Shown: positions 1-23,730 of the stretch, one piece after another
Layout of the letters: every line of letters starts with the position of its first letter
Numbering within the stretch: position 1 is the first letter of the stretch
Source: a virus
UHGV virus genome: UHGV-0068847
Length of the DNA: 27,295 nt
Direction: 5' to 3' (one strand)
The notes under the pieces: generated by a model
Databases searched by the model: none
Seen by the model: the letters and a program-made list of their open reading frames with translations, nothing else
Told to the model about the DNA's origin: nothing
Position numbers and translations under genes: made by a program

Positions 1-1149
1 TTACCCCGTTTTTACCCCAACAACGACCCAGTCTTTCCCTCGATCGTCGTTATACTTATCCGTCATTTTTCTGGACTTGTGCCCCAGCAGTTTCTGAGTA
101 TCCAGACCCTGTTCACGATACAGTCGCTCCGATAAAGAACGCTGTTCATGGAAAGTTGGGGGCGTACCGTTTTTCCACTCTAGGCCGCTTTTGTCTCTGG
201 CTTTTTTAAAAGTGGATGTCAGGCAGCTGCTCGACACTCGATCACCTCTATTGGCCTGGGATGTGGTGTGCCTGAAATGGACAAGATATTTACTGACAAC
301 CGCATCCCGACATTTTGAAATAACATCCCTGAGAGTGAGGCCCAGCACCTCGCATCTAAGATCTAACGGAATAGCCAGACGAGAACCTGTTTTTTCCTGC
401 TCGATATGGAGCATGTCATCCCATACATCGGTGAATTTCATATTGCATATATCACCAAGACGCTGACCAGTGATTAGGGCTAATAACATGCCACACTGAA
501 GATAAGGCTGCTGCTGTTCCGCCGTCTTATAAATAACACTCCATTCATCAAAGGAAAGACGCTGCCTTGTTATTCTATTTCTCGGTTGCTTAGTGGCTTG
601 CGCCGGATTGTATCCGGGGGCAACGTGTCCGGCATGTTGCGCCTCTTTAAAAACATCGATGAGCACCATTCTAACTACCTGAGCCATGCGATTGTGGCCT
701 TCGGCTTTAATGGCATCAGTTATTTCTGCAATATCGAGAGCTGAAATATCCTTTAGATGCTGCAGGCCGCAGTGTTCTCTGAATAAACGGACAGGCTTAC
801 CTTTTTGAAGAAAGGAGTTTGGTTTAAGCTCGTTATTTTTAAGCCTTTCCTCCTGAATGCCTATGTATTTATCGAGCCACTCAGTAACCGTAATATCAGT
901 GCGCCTGCCTTTCATCCGTGCCAGGCGATCATTCACGCTCAAGATCTGCCTAGTTCGCTGTTCAGCTATGATTATGTTAGCTTCTGTGGCGACTTGTTTA
1001 GCCTCGGATTCATCGGTTCCAAGGCTGTGAAAACGACCTGAAATAGGATGTTTATATTGCCAATATACCTTACCGGTGCGCTTATCCAATTTGCAGTACA
1101 GGTTAGGGATTGGTATTTTGTGAGTGCGTGGTCTAGCAGCCATCAGCAA
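1..1149 (-). CDS. int: Tyrosine recombinase / phage integrase
   Basis: 382-aa ORF with typical lambda-family integrase layout; stop codon is at 1..3; overlaps the upstream xis-like ORF by 17 nt as in lambda xis-int. Confidence 0.85.
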   Translation of the reverse strand: MLMAARPRTHKIPIPNLYCKLDKRTGKVYWQYKHPISGRFHSLGTDESEAKQVATEANIIIAEQRTRQILSVNDRLARMKGRRTDITVTEWLDKYIGIQEERLKNNELKPNSFLQKGKPVRLFREHCGLQHLKDISALDIAEITDAIKAEGHNRMAQVVRMVLIDVFKEAQHAGHVAPGYNPAQATKQPRNRITRQRLSFDEWSVIYKTAEQQQPYLQCGMLLALITGQRLGDICNMKFTDVWDDMLHIEQEKTGSRLAIPLDLRCEVLGLTLRDVISKCRDAVVSKYLVHFRHTTSQANRGDRVSSSCLTSTFKKARDKSGLEWKNGTPPTFHEQRSLSERLYREQGLDTQKLLGHKSRKMTDKYNDDRGKDWVVVGVKTG

Positions 1150-2193: not shown

Positions 2194-2660
2194 TCCCCCT
2201 TCACGCCAATGCCAGCGGCGCGGATTGCGTCGGCACATTCTTCCAGTGCAAAGTTATATTTATCAGAAACTAGCCCGTAACCTTTCGGGTACGGCGTCGG
2301 CAGCGTCACGGTCCGCGCCACCAGTTCTGCTATGCGCTTCTCTGCAATTTCCAGCTCATCCAGCAGCGCCAGCACAGTGGCAGGGTTAGCGGCGGCGATG
2401 AATTCTGCGTTGCGTTTGGCTGTCTCATCCCAAGCCATGTGGTAATCGTGATCCAACTCTTCGTGAATGCACGCTGCTGTGGAATTGGTCATGTCGAGCA
2501 ATGACTCGCTACCGACGTAAACCGCGTATGAGTGGTATCCAGACGCTCTGTCTTCACCCTCGCCGTATTCACCGTCAGTTTCGACAACATCGGACCACCA
2601 TTCGCCCTGGGTGGCTTTCTCTGCTGTTTGGCGCAGCGCCTGTTTGTTGAGTGCTGTCAT
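2190..2660 (-). CDS. Ead/Ea22-like early protein
   Basis: 156-aa acidic protein with NPATVLALLDELE-type C-terminal region recalled from Ea22-like proteins of lambdoid phages; ATGA-coupled to neighbours. Confidence 0.5.
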   Translation of the reverse strand: MTALNKQALRQTAEKATQGEWWSDVVETDGEYGEGEDRASGYHSYAVYVGSESLLDMTNSTAACIHEELDHDYHMAWDETAKRNAEFIAAANPATVLALLDELEIAEKRIAELVARTVTLPTPYPKGYGLVSDKYNFALEECADAIRAAGIGVKGE

Positions 2661-3733
2661 TGGGCTGCCTCCATTGCGAATGTCCCTGCTGTGATAGCCA
2701 TTGCAAGCCTTTGTGCTGCAGCTTTCTGTGCCGGAACGCTGGCAATTACCGTGGCTCTTTCTTTGCTGGCATCAGCACAAACACCATCCCATGAAGAGAT
2801 AAGGAAGAAGTCTTCCAGCTCGGTCATTGTGGCTTTTGTTACCAGTTCTTCGATCATCTGCACGATGATATGCGCAGGGCGACGCCTCAGTAGTTCCTGG
2901 ACTGCATAGCCAAACGCATTGATCATCACCGCATGGAATTGGATGTAATCTCGCTTGTATTCAGCTGGTGATACACCGTGTCGGATACCATCAATAGCCG
3001 TCAGCTTCAGCCACGCTTCCCAAAGGTCATAAATATCGCCAGTAGACAGCGCATCGTCCCCGTTACCCGCGAATTTAGCAGTTGCATCACCAACGGCCTT
3101 AAAACTAATCCAGAGGTCACTTTTTGCCGGAACCACGCTGTGTTCAAAATCGGTGATCTCGGAGAACACTGAGTGAGTGGAGAGGAATGACACCATTGTC
3201 TGGGCAACCTGATCCCTGCCGTTATAAGCCATATTTATTGCTGCAGAAGGCTTAGATACGTTGTTATTGATATCAGAGAAAAATTGCTGGCGTGTCTTCA
3301 GTGGTAGTTGCAGAGTCATCATCAAAGGTACAAACAGGGGTGTATCGTATTCTCTGCAGAACATGGTTATACCTGCACCACGATGTTGCCCATCAAAAAG
3401 TTTAATTTCTGCGTCCATTGGGAACCGAACAACGCCTACGTTTGTATTGCCGAACTCTTCAAACTCCACATGTGAAGCACAGTTACCAACCAGTGGTGGG
3501 ATGATGAAAGGCTCCTTATTTTCAGCAGCTGCCACTAGGTATTCGTAAAAATTTTTTACGCGTGATTTATTGAGTTCACGCTGAGAACGCTCAAGCGTGT
3601 GTCCGTAATTATCAGATGCCAGTACGCGGGATAGGGTTCGTCCTGGAACGTTCATCAAAAGAATAAGCGTATCCCCCTGCAAGCCGCGAGAGGCAGGGAA
3701 CTCGAAGTAATACTCCATACTCGATTTGCTCAT
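2657..3733 (-). CDS. DGQHR-domain protein (DndB-like)
   Basis: 358-aa ORF containing the literal motif LFDGQHRGAGI; no DndA/C/D/E-like partners anywhere in the window; start overlaps the upstream stop. Confidence 0.65.
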   Translation of the reverse strand: MSKSSMEYYFEFPASRGLQGDTLILLMNVPGRTLSRVLASDNYGHTLERSQRELNKSRVKNFYEYLVAAAENKEPFIIPPLVGNCASHVEFEEFGNTNVGVVRFPMDAEIKLFDGQHRGAGITMFCREYDTPLFVPLMMTLQLPLKTRQQFFSDINNNVSKPSAAINMAYNGRDQVAQTMVSFLSTHSVFSEITDFEHSVVPAKSDLWISFKAVGDATAKFAGNGDDALSTGDIYDLWEAWLKLTAIDGIRHGVSPAEYKRDYIQFHAVMINAFGYAVQELLRRRPAHIIVQMIEELVTKATMTELEDFFLISSWDGVCADASKERATVIASVPAQKAAAQRLAMAITAGTFAMEAAQ

Positions 3734-3984: not shown

Positions 3985-4148
3985 GGCGTTTTACCTTTAC
4001 GTTCCTGTTCCAGTTGCACCAGAGACTCTTTTAATGCTGCGAACGTAGTGTCCAGTCTGGTGGCGACTTCGCGCATAAGCGGTGCATGCTTTGGTGGCAA
4101 TTCAGCAACGGAGGCAAAAGCCTCCGCTACGAGTTCTTTTACCTTCAT
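3981..4148 (-). CDS. Small hypothetical protein (55 aa), translationally coupled
   Basis: Not in ORF track (below 60 aa); hand-translated MKVKELVAEAFASVAELPPKHAPLMREVATRLDTTFAALKESLVQLEQERKGKTP; start ATG overlaps the stop of 4145..4711 and its stop overlaps the start of 3730..3984. Confidence 0.35.
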   Translation of the reverse strand: MKVKELVAEAFASVAELPPKHAPLMREVATRLDTTFAALKESLVQLEQERKGKTP

Positions 4149-4684
4149 GCGGCACATTGGCGCTGCTCCATCAACTCATTAAAGCGATTTATGAACATGC
4201 CGTATGACTGGCCTGGACGAACTGGGTTGATGATGAATAGGTCCGTCGGGACAACGCCATTGAGGCATGGCCACACGGAACCTTCGTCAATTTCAAAATC
4301 GCGGCGTTCGCTGGCGAGCATCACCAGATCGGCATATTTCACGGTTGGGTGTTGCTCCATAGGAAGGCCAAATTTCTGGCGAATAGCAGCGTCTACGCGA
4401 GCTTCGATCACCTGGTAATCCGGTAACAGGCGCTTAAGCGGTGAGGGGATATCCTGCAGGTATGCTTCGGCGGCATCATGAAGCAGTGCTTCTAATGCAA
4501 ACTCCTGCGGAACGAGATGGCTGGTTAAAACGCTATGCTGGCCGACGCTGTAAAACTCAGGAAGATGCCCAGCAAAGCGGCAGATATGAGACAACGCGGT
4601 AGCGATATCTTCGATCACGATATCGTCCTGTTGGATATCGAGGTAATTAAAATGTTTGCCGGATAATGTCTGAATGTAGCTCAT
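4145..4684 (-). CDS. HD-domain phosphohydrolase, YfdR-like (CPS-53 prophage type)
   Basis: Motifs ALSHICRFAGH and ALLHDAAEAY (H...HD) in translation; ATG at 4684 preceded by GGAG; ORF track start at 4711 is a GTG. Confidence 0.6.
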   Translation of the reverse strand: MSYIQTLSGKHFNYLDIQQDDIVIEDIATALSHICRFAGHLPEFYSVGQHSVLTSHLVPQEFALEALLHDAAEAYLQDIPSPLKRLLPDYQVIEARVDAAIRQKFGLPMEQHPTVKYADLVMLASERRDFEIDEGSVWPCLNGVVPTDLFIINPVRPGQSYGMFINRFNELMEQRQCAA

Positions 4685-8330: not shown

Positions 8331-9186
8331 ATTAACCGGCTACGTATGGGATGGTTGCGCAGCGTCGGGCATGAAGTTGTCTAGTGTCGCGATCATGGCT
8401 CGCCTTGCTGATTTCAGCAGCGATGAAGGTGTGTGCTGGCCGTCCATTGAAACTATTGCTCGCCAGCTTGGCGCAGGGCCGAGCACTATCAGAACGGCAA
8501 TCGCAAAGCTTGAAAAAGATGGCTGGCTCACGCGCACACAGCGCCGTAATGGTAACCGTAATGCTTCGAACGTGTACCGCCTGAATGTGGCGAAACTTCA
8601 GGCTGCCGCATTTTCTCAACTGTCAGATTCTGACACGTCAAAATCTGACGCATCAAAATTTGACGCCTCAAAAACTGACCCGTCGAAATCTGGCAAAAAC
8701 GGCGGTTTTGACCCGTCAGAATCTGGCGGGGATCCGTCAGTAAAATCAACACAAGATCCACAAGTAACTTCAAAACCCTCTTGTCCGGTTGCGGCGCAAC
8801 CCGACCCTGAGATTGTGATTACTGATCAGGCCAGACAGGTTTTGTCTTACCTGAACCAGACAACTGGTTCACGCTATCAGGTATGCAGCACGTCGCTGGA
8901 GAACATTCGTGCCCGTCTGCGGGAACGGTTCACTGTTGATGATCTGTGCCTTGTGGTGGATTACAAAAACGCTGATTGGCGTGATAGCGAGCAGGCTCAA
9001 TATCTCCGTCCGGCAACTCTGTTTATTCCAAAAAACTTCCCTGGTTACCTGCAAAGCGCGACCAAATGGTCTGCCGCTGGGCGACCTGAGCGCGTTAACG
9101 GTAAATGGACGGCTAACTCAGCCAGCCGCGCAAGCTTCCAAAATGTTGACTACTCACTTCCAGAACATTCGGGGTTCCGCTCATGA
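8320..9186 (+). CDS. Replication initiator-like protein (N-terminal HTH, phage conserved C-terminal domain)
   Basis: N-terminal HTH-like region; central low-complexity S/D/K repeat encoded by the iterons; position after cII-like as in lambda O. Confidence 0.55.
   Translation: MSTKLTGYVWDGCAASGMKLSSVAIMARLADFSSDEGVCWPSIETIARQLGAGPSTIRTAIAKLEKDGWLTRTQRRNGNRNASNVYRLNVAKLQAAAFSQLSDSDTSKSDASKFDASKTDPSKSGKNGGFDPSESGGDPSVKSTQDPQVTSKPSCPVAAQPDPEIVITDQARQVLSYLNQTTGSRYQVCSTSLENIRARLRERFTVDDLCLVVDYKNADWRDSEQAQYLRPATLFIPKNFPGYLQSATKWSAAGRPERVNGKWTANSASRASFQNVDYSLPEHSGFRS
8621..8723. repeat. Tandem 15-bp iterons (putative replication origin) inside the initiator gene
   Basis: TGACACGTCAAAATC, TGACGCATCAAAATT, TGACGCCTCAAAAAC, TGACCCGTCGAAATC in tandem at 8631-8690, with degenerate copies at 8621-8630 and 8709-8723. 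Confidence 0.55.
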
Positions 9187-10064
9187 TGCCAAATAAATAT
9201 TGCCAGTCGCTGGCAGAACTGCGCAGTAAACCAGCTCACGAATTGAAAGAAGTTGGCGATCAGTGGCGAACACCGGATCTGCTGTTTTGGGGGATCAACG
9301 CGCTATTTGGTCCATTAGTTCTGGATTTGTTTGCTGACGACGACAACGCGAAATGCCCGGCATGGTACACCGCCGAAGATAACGCGCTGACCCAGGACTG
9401 GTCTGAACGTCTGGCAGAACTGGGTGGCGCAGGTTATGGCAACCCACCGTATAGCCGTTCGCAGTACCACGAGAAACAGGCGATCACTGGTATGACGCAC
9501 ATCATGAAGTACGCAGCAGCCCAGTGCGAGAAGGGCGGTCGCTATGTATTCCTGATAAAAGCCGCGCCAAGTGAAACGTGGTGGCCGGAAGATGCCGATC
9601 ACATTGTATTCATTCGCGGGCGCATTGGGTTCGATCTGCCAGTGTGGTTTGTACCTGCTGACGAAAAACAGAAGCCCACCAGCGCGTTTTTTGCCGGTGC
9701 CATAGCTGTATTCGATAAGTCATGGCGTGGTGAGCGGTTCAGCTATATCAACCGCACAGAACTGGAGGCAAAAGGTCGGGCATTTATGGCGCTGGCTCAA
9801 TTCGCTGTTGGCAAAGAGCCGACAATTGCAATGCGAGCACCCCAGGAGCCAGTCATACCATCGGAAACTGAGTCACGTATCTGGCCTCTCGAGGTTGGTC
9901 TGGTGTTTAACCAGGTGGAAGGCGTTGACGTATTGAGTGAGGCTCAGCAGAACAAGCTGAAAGCCAACATCAATCAACTCTGGCTGGAACGAACGGCCAC
10001 CAGCGAAATTATCACAATTGCGCGTGGTCTTGTCGGCAGCATGCAGGGGGTAACCCATGCGTGA
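9183..10064 (+). CDS. Dam-family DNA N6-adenine methyltransferase
   Basis: NPPY catalytic motif (GYGNPPYSRS) and phage Dam-like N-terminal region (WRTPDLLFWGINALFGP). Confidence 0.8.
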   Translation: MMPNKYCQSLAELRSKPAHELKEVGDQWRTPDLLFWGINALFGPLVLDLFADDDNAKCPAWYTAEDNALTQDWSERLAELGGAGYGNPPYSRSQYHEKQAITGMTHIMKYAAAQCEKGGRYVFLIKAAPSETWWPEDADHIVFIRGRIGFDLPVWFVPADEKQKPTSAFFAGAIAVFDKSWRGERFSYINRTELEAKGRAFMALAQFAVGKEPTIAMRAPQEPVIPSETESRIWPLEVGLVFNQVEGVDVLSEAQQNKLKANINQLWLERTATSEIITIARGLVGSMQGVTHA

Positions 10065-11946
10065 GATTATCGTTGATAACTTTGCTGGTGGCGGTGGCGC
10101 ATCAACGGGTATTGAACTGGCGATCGGACGCAGCGTGGATATTGCGATCAACCACGACGAAAACGCCATTGCGATGCACAAGACGAATCACCCGGAAACA
10201 CTGCATTACTGCGAATCCGTATTTGACGTGGATCCGGTAGCCGCCACCGGAGGTAATCCTGTCGGCCTGGCATGGTTTAGCCCGGACTGCCGACACTTCT
10301 CGAAGGCAAAAGGCGCCAAGCCTGTGAAAAAAGAGATACGCGGTCTGGCCTGGATTGTTCTGCGTTGGGCACTGGCAAAGCGACCGCGCGTGATGATGCT
10401 GGAGAACGTGGAAGAGTTCAAAACGTGGGGACCGCTATTACCAGCTGAGCCACAAAATCCCAATCTGGTGGGGGATGATTTGGCTGCATTTGTTGGCCCA
10501 GTTATACCGCCTTATGATGCGCAGCGTCCGGATCCGGCACGAGCTGGTGAAACATTTGAGGCATTTGTCGGCATGCTATCCACTGGTATTCCTGCTGATC
10601 ACCCGGCACTGGCTGAGGTTTGTGAGTTTCTGTCTATCGAAAGAGGTAGCGAGCAGGCGCAAAAGCTGGTGGATGGGCTTGGATATGATGTTGATTATCG
10701 CGAACTACGCGCGTGTGATTACGGCGCGCCGACGATCCGCAAACGCTTCTTCATGGTTATGCGCTGCGATGGCTGCCCAATCCAGTGGCCTGCAGTTACC
10801 CATGGGGATCCTAAGTCTCTGGAGGTGCAGAGCGGCAGGCTGATGCCATGGCGTACCGCTGCGGAATGTATCGACTGGAATGTTCCGGCCCTGTCCATCT
10901 TCGACCGCAAAAAAACGCTGGCGGAGAACACGCTGAAGCGGATCGCGCGCGGCATACAGCGCTTTGTTATCGAAAGTGCGTCGCCGTTTATCGTGAAGTG
11001 CAATCACACCAGCACCAAAACGAGTTACGACTGTTTCCGTGGTCAGAAGCTGGACGAGCCTTTGCAAACTATTACTAAAACCCACGGTTACGCGTTAGCT
11101 GTTCCACACCTGACAAAATTCCGCACTGGGGCAACCGGGCAGCCCGTTACCGAACCTGTCCCGACGGTAACCGCTGGCACGTCAAAACGCCCGGGTGGGA
11201 ATGGGCATGCACTCGGGATTGTTGAGGCTGCACTGACGCCATTCCTGGCGGGTAATGGTGGTAGTGAATACCAGGCTAAACCGCGCCCGCTGGATAAACC
11301 TGCTCATACCATTATGAAGCAATCCCGCGCCTGTCTTGTTGCGCCAGTGATAGCCCGCCAGTTTGGGGCCAGCGTCGGCCACCGGGCAGACGAACCGAGC
11401 GCCACAATTACAGCTGGTGGTGGAGGTAAATCACAATTGGTGGGCGCGTTTCTGGCTAAACACTACGGCGGTAACTATACGGGACCGGGTGTCAGTATGG
11501 ATGAACCCGCACACTCAGTGACCACTGTCGATCATCATGCGGTTGTTGCCTCTCATTTGGTGAAACTGCGTGGAACATGCCGCGACGGGCAACGTCTTGA
11601 TGTGCCCATGCCAACAATCACCTCTGGTGGCCAACACGTGGGTGAGGTACGCACATTTCTCGAGACGTATTGCGGGGAAAGTGACGATGAATGGCTGGTA
11701 ACGATCGATGGGGTTAAATACCAGATCGTTGATATCGGAATGCGCATGTTGCAGCCGCATGAACTCTACAAAGCGCAGGGCTTCCCGGATGGATACGTTA
11801 TTGATCAGGACTACCGTGGAAATCGCTATGCAAAAGATAAGCAGGTAGCCCGCTGTGGTAATGCGGTACCACCACCATTCGCCAGGGCGCTGGTGGAGGC
11901 AAATCTTCCGGAACTGTGTGCAGTGCAACATCAGGAGGTGGCATGA
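10057..11946 (+). CDS. DNA cytosine-5 methyltransferase (629 aa)
   Basis: Motif I FAGGGG, ENV, QxRxR-like IRKRFF, GNAV; catalytic Cys lies in SPDCRHFS instead of canonical PCQ; start overlaps the Dam stop. Confidence 0.8.
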   Translation: MREIIVDNFAGGGGASTGIELAIGRSVDIAINHDENAIAMHKTNHPETLHYCESVFDVDPVAATGGNPVGLAWFSPDCRHFSKAKGAKPVKKEIRGLAWIVLRWALAKRPRVMMLENVEEFKTWGPLLPAEPQNPNLVGDDLAAFVGPVIPPYDAQRPDPARAGETFEAFVGMLSTGIPADHPALAEVCEFLSIERGSEQAQKLVDGLGYDVDYRELRACDYGAPTIRKRFFMVMRCDGCPIQWPAVTHGDPKSLEVQSGRLMPWRTAAECIDWNVPALSIFDRKKTLAENTLKRIARGIQRFVIESASPFIVKCNHTSTKTSYDCFRGQKLDEPLQTITKTHGYALAVPHLTKFRTGATGQPVTEPVPTVTAGTSKRPGGNGHALGIVEAALTPFLAGNGGSEYQAKPRPLDKPAHTIMKQSRACLVAPVIARQFGASVGHRADEPSATITAGGGGKSQLVGAFLAKHYGGNYTGPGVSMDEPAHSVTTVDHHAVVASHLVKLRGTCRDGQRLDVPMPTITSGGQHVGEVRTFLETYCGESDDEWLVTIDGVKYQIVDIGMRMLQPHELYKAQGFPDGYVIDQDYRGNRYAKDKQVARCGNAVPPPFARALVEANLPELCAVQHQEVA

Positions 11947-14021: not shown

Positions 14022-14732
14022 GTGTATGGAGCGCAAAGAAGCATGAATCAACAAGACCTGAATTTTGTAAGAATAGAATTGCGCCGCGCGCTACCTGACC
14101 TCTCTGGGGGAACAAAAGGGCAGCTTGAGGCTTTCAGTGAACACCCACCAGCAGACAAAAATGCCACCCCGCGCCGTGGAATTCATCTCGTCGAACTCGA
14201 AGGAGAGAAGGGGCCACGCTTTGTTAACTCGCTTTCCGCGCCACTGTATGTGCTGGAAACACGCAGCCGCCGCAGGCCAATGCCGCCGATAAAAGATGCG
14301 GAATTTGAGTCCGCGCCGTGGCGTAGGGCAGTGTCCGCGCTTAGTGGATACCAGCAGGCCTGGTTGCGGTACTGCTACGGTTTTGACCTTAGCTATAAGC
14401 ACCAGGTGATGATGTGTGAATACGTCTGGAAAACTTATCAGAAATGCCTGGGTGAAAACTCGCTTCAGGAGCGTGTAGTAAAGAAACTGATAGGTCTGGT
14501 ATGGCTGGCAGGGCAGGAAATTGCCGCAAACAGAAATAATGAAACCTATAAAGACTATGCTGGTGCAGCGTTGGCCCGCATGGTTAGCGTTGACCGTTCG
14601 ACATGGTTGCGTGTCTATTCATGGCACTGGGCTGGGTTAAAGGCCGCTTTTACCCAGCTTGATGAATCTGCGTTGGCAATGGCTCTTGAATACTATGAGG
14701 AAGAAGAAGCCCTCAAAGTGGCAGAAATGTGA
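14022..14732 (+). CDS. Putative late-gene antiterminator (QuuQ/Q-like)
   Basis: Positional: last nin-region gene, after DUF968, followed by a tR'-like terminator and the lysis cassette; no motif-level confirmation. Confidence 0.5.
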   Translation: MYGAQRSMNQQDLNFVRIELRRALPDLSGGTKGQLEAFSEHPPADKNATPRRGIHLVELEGEKGPRFVNSLSAPLYVLETRSRRRPMPPIKDAEFESAPWRRAVSALSGYQQAWLRYCYGFDLSYKHQVMMCEYVWKTYQKCLGENSLQERVVKKLIGLVWLAGQEIAANRNNETYKDYAGAALARMVSVDRSTWLRVYSWHWAGLKAAFTQLDESALAMALEYYEEEEALKVAEM

Positions 14733-14825
14733 AGTAAATTTCACTATCTCCTTCAAACGCGCTTGCAAAATGCAACAAAATAAGCCATATTTTAAGCATA
14801 TTTGATATGTTGCCAAAATTTTATA

Positions 14826-14853
14826 AACCCGCCGATGAGCGGGTTTTATTATT
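14826..14853 (+). terminator. Rho-independent terminator (tR'-like) downstream of the Q-like gene
   Basis: AAACCCGC-cgatga-GCGGGTTTTATTATT hairpin plus U-tract. Confidence 0.55.
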
Positions 14854-15391: not shown

Positions 15392-15670
15392 ATGACCAGA
15401 ATGAGCACCATTTACAGCAGACTTTCATATGGATCAGGAACCACGCTTGCCGGCTGCGGTGTATCAGCGAAGGCATATGCCGAAACAGCTAAAACAGCAA
15501 AAGAGGTGTCCTGGATGTTGGCCGACAGAATTGCAGGGTTAAGCCTGAGCGACTGGGCAATTATTGTCGGTATCGCATGCACAGTTATCACTTGTGCAGT
15601 GAACTGGTATTTCCGCTGGAAAGAACGGGAGGATCGGCGCAATGGCTATGCCACCAAAGCTGAAGAATAA
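15392..15670 (+). CDS. Class II holin (phage 21 S-like pinholin candidate)
   Basis: C-terminal TM plus YFRWKEREDRR resembling phage 21 S; M-T-R-M dual-start motif; GGAGGT RBS. Confidence 0.7.
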   Translation: MTRMSTIYSRLSYGSGTTLAGCGVSAKAYAETAKTAKEVSWMLADRIAGLSLSDWAIIVGIACTVITCAVNWYFRWKEREDRRNGYATKAEE

Positions 15671-16190
15671 ACTGAGCGCAGCGGTCGTTGGTTTGATTCT
15701 TGCGGGGGCTTCCGCGCCCGTGATTCTCGATCAGTTTCTGGATGAGAAAGAGGGTAACAGCCTGACAGCATATCGCGACGGCGGCGGAATCTGGACTATT
15801 TGCCGTGGCGCCACGATGGTTGATGGTAAGCCAGTAGTTCAGGGCATGAAGCTGTCTGCTGAGAAATGCGCCAAGGTGAACGCCATAGAACGCGACAAGG
15901 CGCTGGCGTGGGTTGAGCGAAATATCAAAGTACCACTGACCGAACCACAGAAAGCGGGTATTGCGTCATTTTGTCCTTACAACATCGGCCCCGGAAAATG
16001 TTTCCCTTCTACGTTCTATAAGCGCATTAACGCTGGTGACCGTAAAGGCGCCTGTGAAGCGATCCGCTGGTGGATTAAAGACGGCGGCCGCGACTGTCGT
16101 CTGACCAAAGGCCAGAAAAATGGGTGCTATGGGCAGGTCGAGCGGCGCGATCAAGAAAGTGCGCTGACGTGCTGGGGGATTGACCGGTGA
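15642..16190 (+). CDS. SAR endolysin (T4-lysozyme-type muramidase with N-terminal signal-arrest-release segment)
   Basis: Hydrophobic N-terminus [19 protein letters not shown] followed by E-x8-D-x5-T catalytic spacing ([16 protein letters not shown]); overlaps the holin 3' end. Confidence 0.85.
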
Positions 16191-16651
16191 GTCGACTAAC
16201 AAACATCATCATTACTGTGATCATCTGCATAATCTTATCTCTAGGCTGGGCCGTTAACCACTACCGCGACAACGCGATCACCTACAAAGACCAACGCAAC
16301 AAAGCAACTGAAAAGCTCAGCCTAGCTAACGTTACTATCACCGACATGCAAACCCGCCAGCGCGATGTCGCTGCACTGGATGCCAAATATACGAAGGAGT
16401 TAGCTGATGCGAAAAACACCATTAGCGGTCTACGTGGCGATGTTGAGTCTGGGCGCAAGCAGCTGCGCGTTGCAGCCGCCTGCAATAAAGTGCGTCAAAC
16501 CACCGACACCGCCAGCATGGATGATGCAACCGGCCCCAGACTTACTGACACCGCTCAACGGGATTATTTCACTCTCAGAGAGCGAATAGAAACTGTCACC
16601 AAGCAACTTGCCGGATTACAAGAATATGTCAGTGCGCAGAATTTAAAATGA
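16187..16651 (+). CDS. Rz: Rz i-spanin
   Basis: N-terminal TM ([28 protein letters not shown]) highly similar to lambda Rz; GTG start overlapping the endolysin stop. Confidence 0.8.
16407..16589 (+). CDS. Rz1: Rz1 o-spanin lipoprotein, embedded in Rz in the +1 frame
   Basis: Signal peptide ending in a Cys lipobox-like LGASSC, then a proline-rich segment; nested entirely within Rz. Confidence 0.7.
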
Positions 16652-16711
16652 CTTGTCACCTATTTCGCTGTCTGATTAGTTATTCAATATTAGTTGGCAT
16701 AGCGTTAGTAA

Positions 16712-16957
16712 TTAACTGCAATGGCTATGACTGCAATTAATTATGGCATCAGCTTTGCTTGATGAGGATGATGGATATTTTTCGGATAAGAATTTCTGTA
16801 TGTCTTCAACAGCTTCGATGCTGACTCTAATATTTGTATGGCCATTGTTTTTTAAATAATTAACTGCTTCATCTATAAGGTTGTTTTCTGATAGAAATTT
16901 GATAACAATGGCAAAGTTATCAACGCCGGTTTCGGTTAAAAGTTCACAGTTAGGCAT
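16712..16957 (-). CDS. Cargo ORF of unknown function (81 aa) with C-terminal CSHSHCS tail
   Basis: GGAG 8 nt upstream of ATG; apparently AT-rich segment between Rz and cos; last gene of a three-ORF minus-strand cluster. Confidence 0.4.
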   Translation of the reverse strand: MPNCELLTETGVDNFAIVIKFLSENNLIDEAVNYLKNNGHTNIRVSIEAVEDIQKFLSEKYPSSSSSKADAIINCSHSHCS

Positions 16958-16962
16958 GGTTG

Positions 16963-17211
16963 TTACTCCAGTGATGTAAATGAGATTTTATTTTGGATTG
17001 TTTTTTTATCAGCGTGGGTGATATGTTTGTATGATTTTTGAGGTTGCCTAAACACAAAAGTTGTATTCAAAGTAATCGAGCTAATTAGGGTGGGCCGCTG
17101 GTTTGGTAAGGTCAGGGGATTAACTCTTATTCTATTACCTTTCTGCGTTGCCATAACCATGGGCAGACCCATCGTAATGGTAGTTTTTGAATAGGCCGCT
17201 AATGAATTCAT
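16963..17211 (-). CDS. Possible small ORF (82 aa) in cargo operon
   Basis: ATGA-coupled to the upstream ORF but no clear RBS; composition is only weakly protein-like. Confidence 0.25.
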   Translation of the reverse strand: MNSLAAYSKTTITMGLPMVMATQKGNRIRVNPLTLPNQRPTLISSITLNTTFVFRQPQKSYKHITHADKKTIQNKISFTSLE

Positions 17212-17456
17212 GGCGCATGGTTTTGGGAGGCGATTTGCAAGCAGGCATCTCGGACTTGTATCGCAAGACGAAGCCCTTCCTGAAATCTTGCTGATGCGTT
17301 GGGATCGTTTGCTGAATTTAGATAGACATTAAAAAGCTGCATGATGGTAACGCTATATGCTTGCTTAATAGCATTTTCAGTAATTGTTTCGTCCATCGAG
17401 AATCTCCTCGGTAGCATAGATGACAGGTTTACTTCCGTCTTACCATAGGTCATCAA
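17208..17456 (-). CDS. Cargo ORF of unknown function (82 aa)
   Basis: First ORF of the minus-strand cluster; TTG/ATG start pair; plausible composition. Confidence 0.35.
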   Translation of the reverse strand: MMTYGKTEVNLSSMLPRRFSMDETITENAIKQAYSVTIMQLFNVYLNSANDPNASARFQEGLRLAIQVRDACLQIASQNHAP

Positions 17457-17482
17457 TGGGATTACTTTAATAGGAAAGAAGC

Positions 17483-17767
17483 ATGAGCAAGCCGGACTGG
17501 GAGGTCATCGGGGCGGCGTACTGTGCCGGAGTGATGGCCCTCCGTGAAATTACATCGCAGCACGACATTAGTGAAGGGACAATGCAGAACCATACTAACT
17601 ACTGAGTGAGTGAAACAGACAATATCATCGGTAAGGATGATGGCAATAGCCCCCGACTTACTGACGCCGCTAAACGGGATTATTTCACCCTCAGAGAGCG
17701 AATCAGCACCATCACCGGGCAAGTGAGTTACTTACAGGATTACATCAGGCAGCAATGTTTGAAGTGA
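17483..17767 (+). pseudogene. Chimeric remnant: 40-codon HTH-like fragment, in-frame TGA, then 53-codon Rz C-terminal homolog
   Basis: 17483..17605 encodes MSKPDWEVIGAAYCAGVMALREITSQHDISEGTMQNHTNY after an AGGA RBS; 17606..17767 continues in the same frame and encodes ...[39 protein letters not shown], a divergent second copy of the Rz 3' end. Confidence 0.5.
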
Positions 17768-17801
17768 ATGGCCGCTAGACTTAGCCAGCCATTTTAAAGA
17801 G

Positions 17802-18227
17802 TTAACCAACGGTTAATGTGGAAAGCAAATGCGAAGTTTCCCCAGAGCAGTTAACAGTGGTTTCGTTGTAAGGGAATTCACCCGTATACTCGCTATTTGC
17901 AGGGGGAGTCATTTTGTTAATCAATGCAGCTTCTGCGCGCACCCGATCATCTTTTCCAGTAATAGTAGCGACGGAATAGCAGAGAGTCTCACCGACCATT
18001 AAATGTTCATTCCAGTCACCCAGCCTGTCGTGCGTGGCCACACGGGATCGGACGTTCGATGATTCGCCGATATAAATCAACTTACGAATTTCGAGTGTTG
18101 TCTTGGAGCCATTAGTAACAGCTTTGCATGCGTATACGCAGTAGATTCCTGACTGATCTGGAACGCCACTCTTATTGGCTTCACGCCAATACCCATCAAA
18201 TTGCAGATTAATTGTTTTACCAGTCAT
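17802..18227 (-). CDS. Standalone GIY-YIG nuclease-domain protein (141 aa)
   Basis: SGIYCVY ... LIYIGESSNVRSRVATH ... RVRAEAALINKMTPPAN matches the GIY / YIG / Arg / Glu...Asn motif series. Confidence 0.55.
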   Translation of the reverse strand: MTGKTINLQFDGYWREANKSGVPDQSGIYCVYACKAVTNGSKTTLEIRKLIYIGESSNVRSRVATHDRLGDWNEHLMVGETLCYSVATITGKDDRVRAEAALINKMTPPANSEYTGEFPYNETTVNCSGETSHLLSTLTVG

Positions 18228-18647
18228 TTATAGCTTCTCCTAATTACGCCAACAATAGCGCAATAGGGAAGTGGGGAGATAAATCCAAGTTACAATGAGC
18301 AATCAGTATTTCAATGACTTATGTCATGATTTTCTTATTAATTATAGAAAATATGGGGTTTTTCCATGATGACTGCCATCGTGATAGCAGGTCGCTCAGC
18401 CATTGAACGGTAGGTTGTTTGTTACACAGGCTGCCATTACAGAGGCATTCACTGAGCGCCTGAGATAATGCACAATAACTCCCCCTGTACTGAAGGAAAT
18501 GTGGAAGAGAAAAATTCCATAGGGAGCAGACTAATCTGTAGGGATTGTCTCGATATCATTAGCGCGGTCATCCGGAAAGAATGGTTGATATGTACTGATT
18601 AGTCAAAATCATGCAGAATAGTCACAGTATAAATATGCGAGGCTATC

Positions 18648-19151
18648 ATGAATTATATTTACCAATTAGTGATCTCTGTAGTAGCGGGTGGACTTGGTGC
18701 ATGGATTGCAATGTTATTTGCTTTAAAACGTTTTTATAGTGAAAAGTGGTGGGAGAAGAGAGCAGGGGCCCTTATTGAATTAACTAATGCAATTTATCAG
18801 GTAAAGGTTCTACAAGATTATTATTCTGATTTGAAAGAGTATCAACGATTAGGTCCAGATGAATATCCAAACTTTATCAAATTGAGTGCTGAGAAACTTA
18901 GTAAATTACAAATCTCAGCTGCTGAGGCAAAAGATTTAATAGTAAAATATAGCAATATCGGCCCCTTGCTGGTTACTGAATCAGTATCAAAACTTCTAAC
19001 TGATTATTTGAAACGAGAAGATAAGGTTGACTATGAAGTTAATTTTCAGGGGTTAGATACAGATGATGCTGAAGAACATCTCTTATCGTTGACAAATAAA
19101 CTTCTGGAAGATTTAGTTAAAGAATCAAAAAGCGTTCTTAAAGCAAAGTAA
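18648..19151 (+). CDS. Membrane-anchored protein of unknown function (N-terminal TM plus helical domain)
   Basis: N-terminal hydrophobic helix LVISVVAGGLGAWIAMLFAL; GAGG RBS; TATAAAT -10-like element about 20 nt upstream; coding region looks strongly AT-rich. Confidence 0.5.
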   Translation: MNYIYQLVISVVAGGLGAWIAMLFALKRFYSEKWWEKRAGALIELTNAIYQVKVLQDYYSDLKEYQRLGPDEYPNFIKLSAEKLSKLQISAAEAKDLIVKYSNIGPLLVTESVSKLLTDYLKREDKVDYEVNFQGLDTDDAEEHLLSLTNKLLEDLVKESKSVLKAK

Positions 19152-19289
19152 TCTAGAAGAAAACCTAAGGGCACTAAATGTGATGTGCCCATTTAATTGT
19201 GCATACGCTAAGAGAATCATTATAGGGATAGCTTATAAATCGAATTGTGAAATTGATATTTATTATCGTTTGCGGGTCCTTTCCAGCGA

Positions 19290-19480
19290 TCCGCTCCGTT
19301 ACGGGGCGGCGACCGCGCAGATTCTCGCTATTTATGAAAATTTTCAGGCATTTGCCGTTTCCGTTCTTCTTCTCGCTAATTCATTGTTTTAACTGTAAAC
19401 ACCCCCTGAAAAGAAAGGAAATGATAAGCCTTAAAAACGGCTAAATAGCCAGAGGGCGTTTCCTTTCTCTGTTTTTGTGC
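19290..19480. other. cos site (cosN plus cosB) of lambda-type packaging
   Basis: GGGCGGCGACCG at ~19304-19315 against lambda cosN GGGCGGCGACCT; downstream CTCGCTATTTATGAAAATTTTC and TTTCCGTTCTTCTTC closely match lambda cosB; directly upstream of Nu1. Confidence 0.8.
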
Positions 19481-19492
19481 ATGGAGTGAGCT

Positions 19493-20038
19493 ATGGAGGT
19501 CAACAAAAAGCGTCTTTCTGAAATATTTGGGGTCAGCGTGCGAACCATTCAGAACTGGCAGGATCAGGGAATGCCTGTAGCACGTGGCGGCGGAAAAGGT
19601 AATGAGGTCCTCTATGAATCTTCCGCGGCTATTGAATGGTATTCCGCACGCGACGCGGCGATTGAGAATGAGAAATTACGGAAGGAGGTGGAAGACCTTC
19701 GTCTTGCATCGGAATCCGACCTTCAGCCTGGTACGATTGACTATGAGCGTCATCGCCTCACCCGGGCACAGGCTGACGCCCAGGAACTAAAAAATGCAAA
19801 AGATTCCGCTGAGGTGGTGGAAACCGCATTCTGCACGTTCGTGCTGTCGCGGATGGCCGGAGAAGTAGCCAGCATTCTTGATGGAGTTGCTCTGTCTGTT
19901 CAGCGGCGCTTCCCGGAGCTGGAAAACCGACATATTGATTTCCTCAAGAAGGACATCATTAAAGCCATGAACAAAGCAGCTGCGCTGGATGAAATAATAC
20001 CGGGGTTGCTGAGTGAATATATCGAACAGTCAGGTTAA
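19493..20038 (+). CDS. nu1: Terminase small subunit
   Basis: Near-identical to lambda Nu1 over its length (MEVNKK...EYIEQSG). Confidence 0.95.
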   Translation: MEVNKKRLSEIFGVSVRTIQNWQDQGMPVARGGGKGNEVLYESSAAIEWYSARDAAIENEKLRKEVEDLRLASESDLQPGTIDYERHRLTRAQADAQELKNAKDSAEVVETAFCTFVLSRMAGEVASILDGVALSVQRRFPELENRHIDFLKKDIIKAMNKAAALDEIIPGLLSEYIEQSG

Positions 20039-21935
20039 GGGGCTGCAGCACTCTGCGCGCGCGGGTCTACTTTCGCTGTACCGACCTGAGCCGCAAACGG
20101 CGGTTGAATGGGCAGACGATAATTACTATCTCCCCAAAGAGTCGGCCTACCAGGAAGGGCGCTGGGAAACATTGCCATTTCAGCGCGCGATCATGAATGC
20201 GATGGGTAACGACTACATTCGTGAAGTTAACGTTGTTAAGTCTGCCCGTGTTGGCTATTCAAAAATGTTGCTGGGTGTTTATGCGTATTTTATACAGCAC
20301 AAGCAGCGAAATTCCCTTATCTGGCTGCCCACGGATGGTGACGCCGAAAACTTCATGAAGTCGCATGTTGAACCCACGATCCGTGATATTCCGTCACTTC
20401 TGGCGCTGGCCCCCTGGTATGGCAAAAAGCACCGGGACAATACGCTCAGTATGAAACGCTTCTCCAACGGTCGCGGGTTCTGGTGTCTGGGGGGTAAGGC
20501 GGCGAAAAACTATCGCGAAAAGTCAGTGGATGTTGCCGGCTATGACGAACTCGCTGCTTTTGATGAGGATATTGAGAAAGAGGGTTCCCCGACGTTTCTG
20601 GGTGATAAACGTATTGAGGGCTCTGTCTGGCCTAAATCTATTCGTGGCTCAACGCCAAAAACAAAGGGGACCTGCCAGATTGAGCGTGCTGCCAGCGAGT
20701 CCGGGCATTTCATGCGCTTTCATGTTGCCTGTCCGCACTGTGGTGAAGAGCAGTACCTTAAGTTCGGCGACAAAGAAACCCCGTTCGGGTTCAAATGGAC
20801 ACCGGGCGAACCCTCCAGCGTCTTTTACCTGTGTGAACATAATGCCTGCGTCATTAAGCAGCAGGAGCTGGATTTCACTGAAGCTCGTTACATCTGCGAC
20901 ACCACCGGGATCTGGACGCGCGATGGTTTATCCTGGTTTTCATCAACAGGCACAGAAATCGACCCGCCGGACAGCGTGACGTTTCACATCTGGACGGCAT
21001 ACAGCCCATTTACCACCTGGGTACAGATCGTCAAAGACTGGCTAAAAACGAAAGGGGATACCGGAAAGCGTAAAACCTTCGTGAACACTACGCTGGGCGA
21101 AACATGGGAGCCTAAAATTGGTGAACGGCCTGACGCGGAGCTCATGGCCGAACGCAAAGAGTTTTTCGGGGCATCCGTACCGGATCGTGTTGCTTATCTG
21201 ACAGCCGGGATTGACTCCCAGCTGGATCGATATGAAATGCGCGTCTGGGGATGGGGACCCGGAGAGGAAAGCTGGCTGATTGACCGGCAAATCATTATGG
21301 GCCGTCATGATGATGAAGCGACCCTCGTCAGGGTGGACGAGGCGATTAACAAAACCTACTCCCGAAAGAATGGCGTGGAAATGTCGGTATCCCGTATCTG
21401 CTGGGATATCGGCGGTATTGACCCGACCATTGTCTACAATCGCTCAAAAAAGCATGGCCTGTTTCGCGTGATCCCGATTAAAGGGGCTTCCGTTTACGGT
21501 AAGCCCGTCGCGAATATGCCGCGTAAACGCAACAAGAACGGCGTTTATCTGACGGAAGTGGGGACTGATACCGCAAAGGAGCAGATTTATAACCGCTTCA
21601 CACTTCAGCCGGAAGGGAGTGAACCTCTTGCCGGAGCCGTGCATTTTCCCAATAACCCCGAAATTTACGATCTGGCTGAGGCTCAGCAACTGACTGCTGA
21701 GGAGCAGGTTGAAAAATGGGTGGACGGGCGTAAGAAAATCGTCTGGGACAGCAAAAAGCGACGAAATGAAGCGCTGGACTGCTTCGTTTATGCGCTGGCG
21801 GCCCTGCGGATCAGTATTTCGCGATGGCAACTGAATCTTGATTCACTGCTCGCGAGCCTGCAGGAGGAAGAGGGGAGCCGGACCAATAACAAAACCCTGG
21901 CTGATTATGCCCGGGCATTATCTGGAGATGAATAA
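20013..21935 (+). CDS. A: Terminase large subunit
   Basis: Close match to lambda gpA; GTG start overlapping the Nu1 3' end as in lambda. Confidence 0.95.
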
Positions 21936-22141
21936 TGGCGACACAGACTGATCTGGATGCCGCCCGCGCTGCGTTGCATGACCTCATGATGGGAAAGCGG
22001 GTGGCAACGGTGCAGAAAGACGGCCGGCGGGTTGAGTTCACTGCGACTTCAGTCAGTGACCTGAAGAAATACATTGCCGAACTTGAGTCACAGGTTGGCA
22101 CCACTCCACGACGCCGGGGACCGGCAGGATTTTACGCATGA
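21935..22141 (+). CDS. W: Head completion protein W
   Basis: Close match to lambda W ([42 protein letters not shown]). Confidence 0.9.
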
Positions 22142-23730
22142 AAACACCTGCTTTGTTAGGACCGGACGGTAAAACCGCTCTGCGGGATTATGCCGGATAT
22201 CATGGCGGTGCTGGTGGCTTTGGCGGTCAGCTCCGCGCCTGGAACCCACCGAGTGAAAGCGCAGATGCTGCGTTATTGCCTAATTTTTCCCGTGGTAACG
22301 CGCGCGCTGACGATCTGGTCCGCAATAACGGCTATGCGGCAAACGCGGTACAGCTCCACCAGGATCACATTGTCGGGTCGTTTTTCCGACTCAGTTATCG
22401 GCCCAGCTGGCGTTTTCTGGGCATTGGGGAGGAAGAGGCCCGGGCGTTCTCCCGTGAAGTTGAGGCGGCCTGGAAAGAATTTGCGGAGGACGATTGCTGC
22501 TGCATTGATGCGGAACGTAAGCGTACATTCACCATGATGATCCGTGAAGGTGTTTCCATGCATGCGTTTAACGGTGAGTTATGTGCACAGGCCACCTGGG
22601 ACAGTGATTCCACGCGTCTTTTCCGCACACAGTTCAAAATGGTGAGCCCAAAACGCATCAGCAACCCCAATAACGCCGGAGACACGCGAAACTGTCGGGC
22701 AGGTGTCAGAACAAATGACAGTGGCGCCGCGCTGGGATATTACGTCAGCGAGGATGGCTATCCGGGGTGGATGGCGCAGAAGTGGACCTATATTCCGCGT
22801 GAACTGCCCGGCGGGCGGCCTTCCTTTATCCACGTATTTGAACCCCTGGAAGATGGGCAGACACGCGGTGCCAACGTGTTTTACAGCGTCATGGAGCAAA
22901 TGAAAATGCTCGATACGCTGCAGAATACGCAGCTCCAGAGCGCGATTGTCAAGGCGATGTATGCCGCCACGATTGAAAGTGAGCTGGATACGCAAACCGC
23001 GATGGACTTTATTCTTGGCTCAGACAGTAAAGAGCAGCAAAGCAAGATGACCGGCTGGCTGGGGGAGATGGCCTCGTACTATACCGCGGCGCCGGTTCGT
23101 CTCGGCGGCGCGAAGGTGCCGCATCTGATGCCGGGCGACTCCCTGAATCTTCAGTCAGCGCAGGATACTGATAACGGCTATTCGACGTTTGAACAATCAT
23201 TGCTGCGCTACATTGCTGCAGGGCTGGGTGTGTCATATGAGCAACTCTCTCGCAACTATTCGCAGATGAGTTATTCCACCGCCCGCGCCAGTGCTAACGA
23301 GTCCTGGGCGTACTTTATGGGGCGTCGCAAATTTGTTGCCTCCCGCCAGGCCTGTCAGATGTTTTTATGCTGGCTGGAAGAGGCCATTGTTCGCCGGGTA
23401 GTGACATTACCGTCTAAAGCCCGGTTCAGTTTTCAGGAGGCGAGAAGCGCCTGGGGAAATGCTGACTGGATCGGCTCCGGGCGAATGGCCATTGACGGAC
23501 TGAAGGAGGTGCAGGAGGCCGTCATGCTCATTGAGGCGGGGCTGAGCACCTATGAGAAGGAATGCGCCAAACGCGGGGAAGACTATCAGGAAATCTTTGC
23601 CCAGCAGGTTCGTGAAACGATGGAGCGCCGCGCTGCGGGACTTAAACCGCCAGCGTGGGCGGCTTCGGCCTTTGAGTCTGGACTGAAAAAATCGAATGAG
23701 GAGGGGACCGATGACGCCAGAGCTGCGTAA
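22138..23730 (+). CDS. B: Portal protein
   Basis: Close match to lambda gpB along the whole length. Confidence 0.95.

Follow-up and report, generated by a model that had tools for sequence, protein, structure and literature searches.

The virus genome UHGV-0068847, analysed over its whole length of 27,295 nucleotides (the window; positions are those of the window unless a relative is named), carries between its spanin and terminase genes an element in which the start of one gene is joined to the end of another. The element (17472-17767) consists of the ribosome-binding site (RBS) and first 32 codons of a small terminase gene (terS), ∼27 nt of filler, and the last 53 codons of the Rz/Rz1 spanin genes. 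It is most probably a non-functional recombination scar, inherited by this phage, which originated in an out-of-register illegitimate exchange and was spread by homologous exchange. Comparison with relatives clearly indicates that the scar is old, travelling, and decaying. Nothing essential appears to have been lost in the process because intact copies remain on both sides of it.

A terS start and an Rz end are joined in the window

The terS stub (17472-17577, plus strand) was delimited by blastn, codon comparison, and the match to phrog_1206, and corresponds to an HK639-type small terminase. Nucleotide identity was 85% to the terS start of Klebsiella phage ST101-KPC2phi6.1 (17472-17577) and 83% to terS of HK639 (17489-17577); homology ends at 17577, i.e., at codon 32. 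What is left of the gene is the N-terminal helix-turn-helix (HTH), cut within the recognition helix. Together with an 8-codon tail (TMQNHTNY) and a TGA, it forms a 40-codon open reading frame (ORF; 17483-17605, plus strand) with an AGGA Shine-Dalgarno sequence 9 nt before the ATG. A preliminary description of this DNA had reported a 40-codon HTH-like ORF with a strong RBS that resembled the N-termini of small terminase subunits, which is borne out by its match to the terS family phrog_1206 (E 1.2e-11, residues 1-36) and by the nucleotide identities. In the 40-codon ORF, the recognition helix of terS is replaced by filler, and the oligomerization core and C-terminal TerL-binding region (the protein normally comprises ∼200 aa) are missing. 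Unlike HK639-type terS, the stub has no cognate large terminase gene next to it; the next terminase genes (Nu1 and a 640-aa ORF) are found 1.9 kb downstream, past the cos site. Nu1 (19493-20038, plus strand; PF07471, E 1.7e-92), which is the real small terminase of the window phage, is unrelated to the stub.

The junction filler (ACAATGCAGAACCATACTAACTACTGA; 17578-17605, plus strand, about 27 nt) is constant in all carriers bar one synonymous change. It does not match either parent convincingly: 12 of 27 positions are identical to HK639 codons 33-41 (counted by eye), and no match in the databases of E. coli genomes and INPHARED phages covered it.

Downstream of the filler, the 3′ end of Rz (16489-16651, codons 102-154) recurs at 17605-17767, in frame and offset by 1116 nt. 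A repeat search returned 16489-16606 versus 17605-17722 at 75% ungapped identity with a spacing of 1116. That ∼130 bp of Rz recur as a diverged copy had been noticed before, at an identity of roughly 75% by eye; over those limits (16521-16651 versus 17636-17767), 94 of 131 positions are identical (71.8%), with a global alignment score of 54 compared with −30.8 ± 5.5 for random segments of the window (z = 15.6). The core of the repeat (16519-16587) reaches 60/69 (87%; blastn E 4e-18). Thus, the repeat is real, but it starts ∼30 nt earlier than had been described, at Rz codon 102.

The second copy (17606-17767, plus strand; hereafter the Rz stub) comprises 53 codons and has the more lambda-like ending, QQCLK, that had been pointed out. 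It matches PF03245 (E 1.6e-14; profile positions 85-125 of 126, the last 41 positions) and phrog_13 (positions 110-154 of 154), as well as phrog_2934, and shares 90% nucleotide identity with the Rz 3′ end of Klebsiella phage ST147-VIM1phi7.2. Like the lambda Rz/Rz1 spanin, it contains the C-terminal periplasmic domain, a near-terminal cysteine and, in the +1 frame (17610-17726), the C-terminus of Rz1 (tblastn to residues 30-54). Unlike that spanin, it begins at the equivalent of codon 102 and so is not a full-length i-spanin; it has no transmembrane domain (TMD) and no Shine-Dalgarno sequence before the GTG at 17606, hence no RBS, the Rz1 remnant is without signal peptide or lipobox, and the frame is broken in relatives. 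The intact Rz of the window terminates in EYVSAQNLK, without the near-C-terminal cysteine that the stub has, and its embedded Rz1 retains a second cysteine (AIKCVKPP). A near-C-terminal cysteine is also present in lambda Rz.

As had been described, the Rz copy is in frame with the upstream ORF (17606 − 17483 is divisible by 3), separated from it by a single TGA (17603-17605). The two Rz ends of the window are in-frame direct repeats; recombination between them would remove the cargo genes that they enclose and restore an intact hybrid Rz.

The junction is shared by phages with different spanins and terminases

Relatives were recovered by exact-protein look-ups and a pattern scan (L numbers denote their loci or assemblies). 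The same junction was found in many assemblies; it occurs as six or more sequence variants, within five or more flanking contexts, and with four packaging/spanin combinations. The window type combines an Rz spanin with Nu1 packaging. L016, L018, L023, and L024 have a 180-aa or DUF2514 spanin, other cargo, and Terminase_2; L025, L027, and L034, like L028 to L031 and L033, have Terminase_2 and other cargo; L020 has Terminase_4; and L032 has Terminase_4 and Rha-type cargo. In L016, L018, and L020, the stub is the sole Rz-like sequence; there is no Rz-type spanin and hence no duplication. The apparent duplication of the Rz 3′ end in the window would therefore reflect the chance position of an Rz-type spanin 5′ of a scar that is older and travels between phages.

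According to a difference map, a block of 464 nt (17241-17704), read as the product of a recent exchange, is 100% identical between the window and L016, L018, L023, and L024. To its left (17147-17240), 7 of 94 positions differ (about 93% identity); to its right (17705-17763), 22 of 59 differ (about 63%), the tail here belonging to a different Rz allele, and homology does not extend past the stop codon of the stub. The switch at 17705 falls inside the conserved Rz box, just past the box GGGATTATTTCACCCTCAGAGAGCGAAT, a stretch that codes for both Rz and Rz1, with matches in more than 4000 E. coli genome records. In L025, homology sets in at the start codon of the stub, and the first 55 nt represent a different terS allele. 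Judging from these mosaic boundaries, crossovers seem to have taken place at 17705, in the dual-coding Rz/Rz1 box, and at or within the terS stub. L020 is 99% identical to the window from 17147 to 19371, i.e., to just past cos. What sets the window apart from its closest relatives is the segment 16190-17147 (the Rz/Rz1 spanin, an 81-aa gene, and most of an 82-aa gene).

This segment is delimited by the endolysin stop on one side and by a position in the 82-aa cargo gene on the other, rather than within Rz. This speaks against the history proposed in the preliminary description, in which a lysis cassette had been swapped into this phage by crossover within Rz. The junction is also shared with phages that lack an Rz-type spanin, and it joins non-homologous genes (terS codon ∼32 to Rz codon ∼102). 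The more general idea, in which Rz 3′ stubs are traces of earlier exchanges here, still fits, as illustrated by phrog_2934 and by stubs elsewhere (see below). In relatives, no intact gene spanning 17483-17767 was found, and the TGA is present in all variants.

An exact-pattern scan (two patterns) of the GTDB species representatives did not return the junction; complete E. coli genomes and INPHARED phages contained the two halves separately, never the junction; and when the 40-aa ORF was used in a word-indexed protein search, the only matches were other 40-aa stubs, not parents. No prior description of scars joining a terS start to an Rz end was found in the literature searched.

The joined fragments are decaying

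The reading frame of the Rz stub is not conserved, being interrupted by a stop or frameshifts in three variant groups. In the L028 group, two deletions (2 nt and 1 nt) enclose a stop; the L025 group has a further 1-nt deletion, and L032 another frameshift. The 40-codon ORF is open in all six known variants, each of which keeps the TGA. However, the terS stubs depart from residues that are invariant in HK639, Kp6.1, and L032 (e.g., E10G, Y13C/H, R14C/W, S19A/F, and G28D), L032 having the least-decayed stub, and the 40-codon ORFs of the window and L028 differ by five non-synonymous and no synonymous changes. The ratio pN/pS was 0.2-0.5 among the terS stubs compared with 0.06 between the functional genes of HK639 and Kp6.1, from few sites and with gene conversion as a possible confounder. 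The GC content of the scar is about 50%, like that of core phage genes; the flanking cargo has 33-42%. We read the terS and Rz pieces as pseudogene stubs, in agreement with the initial view of the region as a mosaic scar with an in-frame chimeric pseudogene: two gene fragments, non-functional as a fused gene.

Origin of the scar

The order of the pieces, a terS start followed by an Rz end, is the reverse of what a simple deletion across cos would produce. It is the order expected at the joint of an out-of-register exchange or, equivalently, of a tandem duplication of the interval. A single illegitimate exchange of this kind, between two phage genomes or two concatemer units, probably took place in the stretch from Rz to terS, which is non-essential. 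Everything up to terS codon ∼32 would have come from the left parent, and everything from Rz codon ∼102 onward from the right parent. The product would have had an intact spanin upstream and an intact terminase downstream, with stubs in the middle that cost nothing, and two slots for morons would have been created. The topology of the window (intact Rz, cargo, terS start/Rz end, cargo, intact terS) is exactly that of such a product. Phages in which Rz, a short interval, and an HK639-type terS follow one another exist (L002 and L040), but no near-identical parent was found. Thereafter, the scar probably spread through homologous or homeologous recombination in which its own two parts and the genes next to it served as patches of homology.

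Several points weigh against this account. Among the phages examined, none was found whose stub is still near-identical to its intact parent; the original event can neither be dated nor assigned to parents; and the 27-nt filler is unexplained. That the stubs served as homology patches is deduced from the mosaic boundaries. In addition, the 40-codon ORF and its RBS are intact in all six variants, without an indel, compared with at least four indels in the Rz part, a pattern that would agree weakly with selection on this ORF (p about 0.1 from length alone).

The window itself would also be accounted for by a tandem duplication in situ, from Rz codon ∼102 to terS codon ∼32 in this very lineage, followed by divergence of the copies and replacement of their contents: the topology is exactly that of a tandem-duplication joint, the Rz repeat is offset in frame, and L040 has a stub with an intact terS of the same type just downstream. 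However, the two Rz ends of the window are only 72% identical, yet the scar is 100% identical to that of phages without an Rz-type spanin, and the terS stub is HK639-type, whereas the terS of the window is Nu1. The 90% identity of the Rz stub to Rz of ST147-VIM1phi7.2 suggests, moreover, that the stub and the Rz of the window are not mutual closest relatives. A duplication in this lineage is therefore unlikely; given the divergence of the Rz ends and the different terS type, any duplication would have happened in an ancestor elsewhere. Alternatively, the scar might be under selection, either as a two-sided homology adaptor, of which the terS stub pairs with HK639-type and the Rz stub with Rz-type phages, or through a 40-codon HTH micropeptide that hampers the packaging of rival HK639-type phages. 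We consider this quite unlikely; if the adaptor were true, phages with unrelated packaging modules could swap lysis and moron modules. Very unlikely, too, is that the pieces are real genes, be it a 40-aa HTH peptide (a decoy or regulator derived from the terS N-terminus and made from the late transcript) or a functional, soluble Rz C-terminal domain of 53 aa. The 40-codon ORF with its RBS and stop is kept in all variants on the strand of the late transcript, and short Rz C-terminal ORFs constitute a PHROG of their own, phrog_2934. Against this stand the non-synonymous changes at residues invariant in functional terS (E10G, Y13C/H, R14C/W, and G28D), the replacement of the recognition helix by filler, the lack of an RBS and TMD in the 53-codon ORF and its breakage in three variant groups; neither ORF matched a defence family (PADLOC).

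It is highly improbable that the scar persists as a regulatory element, such as a promoter that drives the antisense cargo operon. In every context, the immediate left neighbour of the stub is an antisense gene, and the minus strand has a sigma-70-like site with an extended −10 (17646 to 17619, TTGCCA-16-TATTGT), but promoter-like sites are no more numerous than expected from shuffled sequence and no Rfam element was found within the scar. Both hexamers are mutated in L028 to L031, which retain the same 62-aa cargo gene, and the site was therefore rejected as the reason for retention. Finally, programmed read-through of the TGA would yield a terS-Rz fusion protein, the two frames being in register with a single stop between them. 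This would be the case by chance one time in three, the L025 and L032 groups no longer keep the two frames in register, and in L028 another stop follows, which for practical purposes refutes read-through and leaves it next to no probability.

An out-of-register illegitimate exchange followed by homologous spread also agrees with what is known of phage mosaicism. According to the Hendrix/Juhala model, mosaic junctions of lambdoid phages result from out-of-register illegitimate recombination. The scar resembles such junctions in that pieces of unrelated genes abut, intact copies flank them, the interval is non-essential, and the leftover junk decays. It differs from the usual ones, which are inferred at gene boundaries, in that the junction lies inside both genes and can be traced through many backgrounds, and in that a second, independent joint of the same two gene ends exists (see below). 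The model has been debated in the light of mosaics with a "hit plus shoulders" signature, which result from Red-type homeologous recombination (Martinsohn et al, 2008, PMC2327257; De Paepe et al, 2014, PMC3945230). The 464-nt block of full identity with its diverged shoulders and the crossover in the Rz box fit this signature, except that the shoulder in the scar is a dead gene stub and not a functional orthologue. The scar may thus be regarded as a traceable fossil of a process that is usually inferred, a non-homologous join in a moron zone followed by homologous spread. The junction is traceable in phages with four kinds of spanin and three of small terminase and, together with the second joint, backs both sides of the debate. 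The phenomenon as such falls within known phage mosaicism and its novelty is modest; its value lies in the clarity, traceability, and recurrence of the fossil.

The same gene ends were probably joined a second time

Prophages of the Klebsiella type contain a different joint between a terS start and an Rz end (L038 from K. quasipneumoniae, 3987-4165; L040, 3975-4153; L041). There, terS codons 1-18 (MAKPDWEAIETAYRAGVM, identical to HK639) are connected to Rz at codon ∼108 and, unlike in the window scar, the joint shows 3-4 nt of microhomology and no filler. In L040, an intact terS of the same type follows 480 nt downstream. These comparisons suggest that the same two gene ends were joined at least twice, independently; that one joint was trimmed from the other is less likely.

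Joints of the L038/L040 type are annotated in databases as 50-67-aa ORFs for a "lysis protein" or "hypothetical" product. The matches of a protein search were all short ORFs for the Rz C-terminus, from Klebsiella, Enterobacter, and Citrobacter; several of these ORFs start with LGGHRDGVP, the HK639-type terS stub read out of frame. Like the Rz stub of the window, these are C-terminal pieces of Rz, and phrog_2934 consists solely of such pieces. Annotators should be aware that ORFs called "lysis protein", "Rz1", or "HTH" are frequently stubs when they are small and lie in this part of Klebsiella, Citrobacter, and Enterobacter prophages. The "Rz1 lytic protein" ORFs of the Klebsiella phages L002 and L004, considered as further candidates, were rejected; they encode an unrelated small protein.

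Further remnants support the notion that the interval between Rz and terS is an accretion zone. A 170-aa HK639-like terS remnant lies upstream of the scar in L018 (3211-3750) and L023 (1132-1644), and a 19-codon N-terminal stub of Terminase_2 lies between antisense cargo genes in L025 (4366-4422) and also in L034. The functional Terminase_2 terS of L016 (7226-7798) and L025 (6664-7227) is 42-51% identical over its C-terminal ∼70 residues to residues 142-216 of HK639 terS, which suggests that terS itself is mosaic, with the N-terminal DNA-binding part swapped and the C-terminal (presumably TerL-binding) part kept. The zone between lysis and terminase genes of L038 also contains a gene of the Acb2/Tad1-hairpin family (1135-1419; PF24729, a family of anti-CBASS/Thoeris sponges).

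Cargo genes flanking the scar

The preliminary description had placed a cargo operon between the two Rz ends. The operon indeed exists and consists of three small AT-rich antisense genes (16712-17396, minus strand; GC 33-42%) encoding proteins of 62 (17208-17396), 82 (16963-17211), and 81 aa (16712-16957), the former two ORFs overlapping by 4 nt (17208-17211). None of the three proteins had a significant Pfam, PHROG, or PADLOC match; a marginal one (phrog_18434, E 0.0057) was obtained for the 81-aa protein only. The 62-aa gene travels with the scar and is conserved at 97-98% (protein) across many phage backgrounds; in relatives, the 82-aa gene breaks off around codon 22-24 (boundary at 17147). 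The operon could be an uncharacterized moron, a toxin-antitoxin pair, or a defence unit.

A second cargo block follows downstream of the scar (17802-19151) and is 99% shared with the Terminase_4 phage L020. It contains genes for a 141-aa GIY-YIG-like protein (17802-18227, minus strand; Pfam match below cut-off, E 0.002, and a weak match to PADLOC PDC-S14) and a 167-aa protein (18648-19151, plus strand; phrog_17948), which together are a candidate nuclease-based moron or defence pair.

Phage context

The window is a lambdoid prophage of Citrobacter type. An integrase gene (1-1149, minus strand) is followed by a DndB-like gene, a CI-like repressor gene, replication genes, and methylase genes, and then by DUF968 and Q (14022-14732). 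The lysis genes begin with the holin (15392-15670, plus strand; Pfam Phage_holin_2_3) and the endolysin (15642-16190, plus strand; Phage_lysozyme as marked in relatives); this module (15392-16190) is 91-93% identical in nucleotide sequence to that of other scar-carrying phages, and the blastn boundaries place the mosaic boundary exactly at the endolysin stop (16190). The intact Rz i-spanin follows (16187-16651, plus strand, 154 aa; PF03245, E 1.4e-41; phrog_13, E 2e-67, positions 1-153 of 154), with Rz1 embedded in its +1 frame (16407-16589, from the ORF list). The ∼2.65 kb from Rz to cos are occupied by small genes. The cos site is phi80-type, its cohesive end starting at about 19304 (99% match to the left end of phi80). 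Nu1 is followed by head genes; the large terminase (20013-21935, 640 aa) and portal (22138-23730, 530 aa) genes were assigned through the Pfam marks on their counterparts in relatives (GpA_ATPase/GpA_nuclease for the 640-aa gene).

The integration neighbour of relatives is icd (L035/L036, 13847-19200), and the order of genes in the flank is rluE, nudJ, mnmA, hflD, and purB. This host flank is 82.8% identical to E. coli, and a Citrobacter freundii assembly has the 53-aa stub ORF among its annotations; both point to a non-Escherichia enterobacterial host, most likely Citrobacter.

In the early region, the DndB-like protein (2657-3733, minus strand) matched PF14072 with E 5e-47, and a 629-aa C5 cytosine methylase (PF00145, E 3.4e-20) is encoded within 9183-11946 (plus strand), adjoined by a 293-aa ORF; in relatives, the corresponding ORF carries a Dam mark (PF05869). 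Just 3′ of Q, a weak Rfam match to Trp_leader (14758-14852, plus strand; 23.8 bits compared with a gathering score of 41, E 0.15) is probably due to a hairpin region of the late promoter or terminator rather than to a trp leader.

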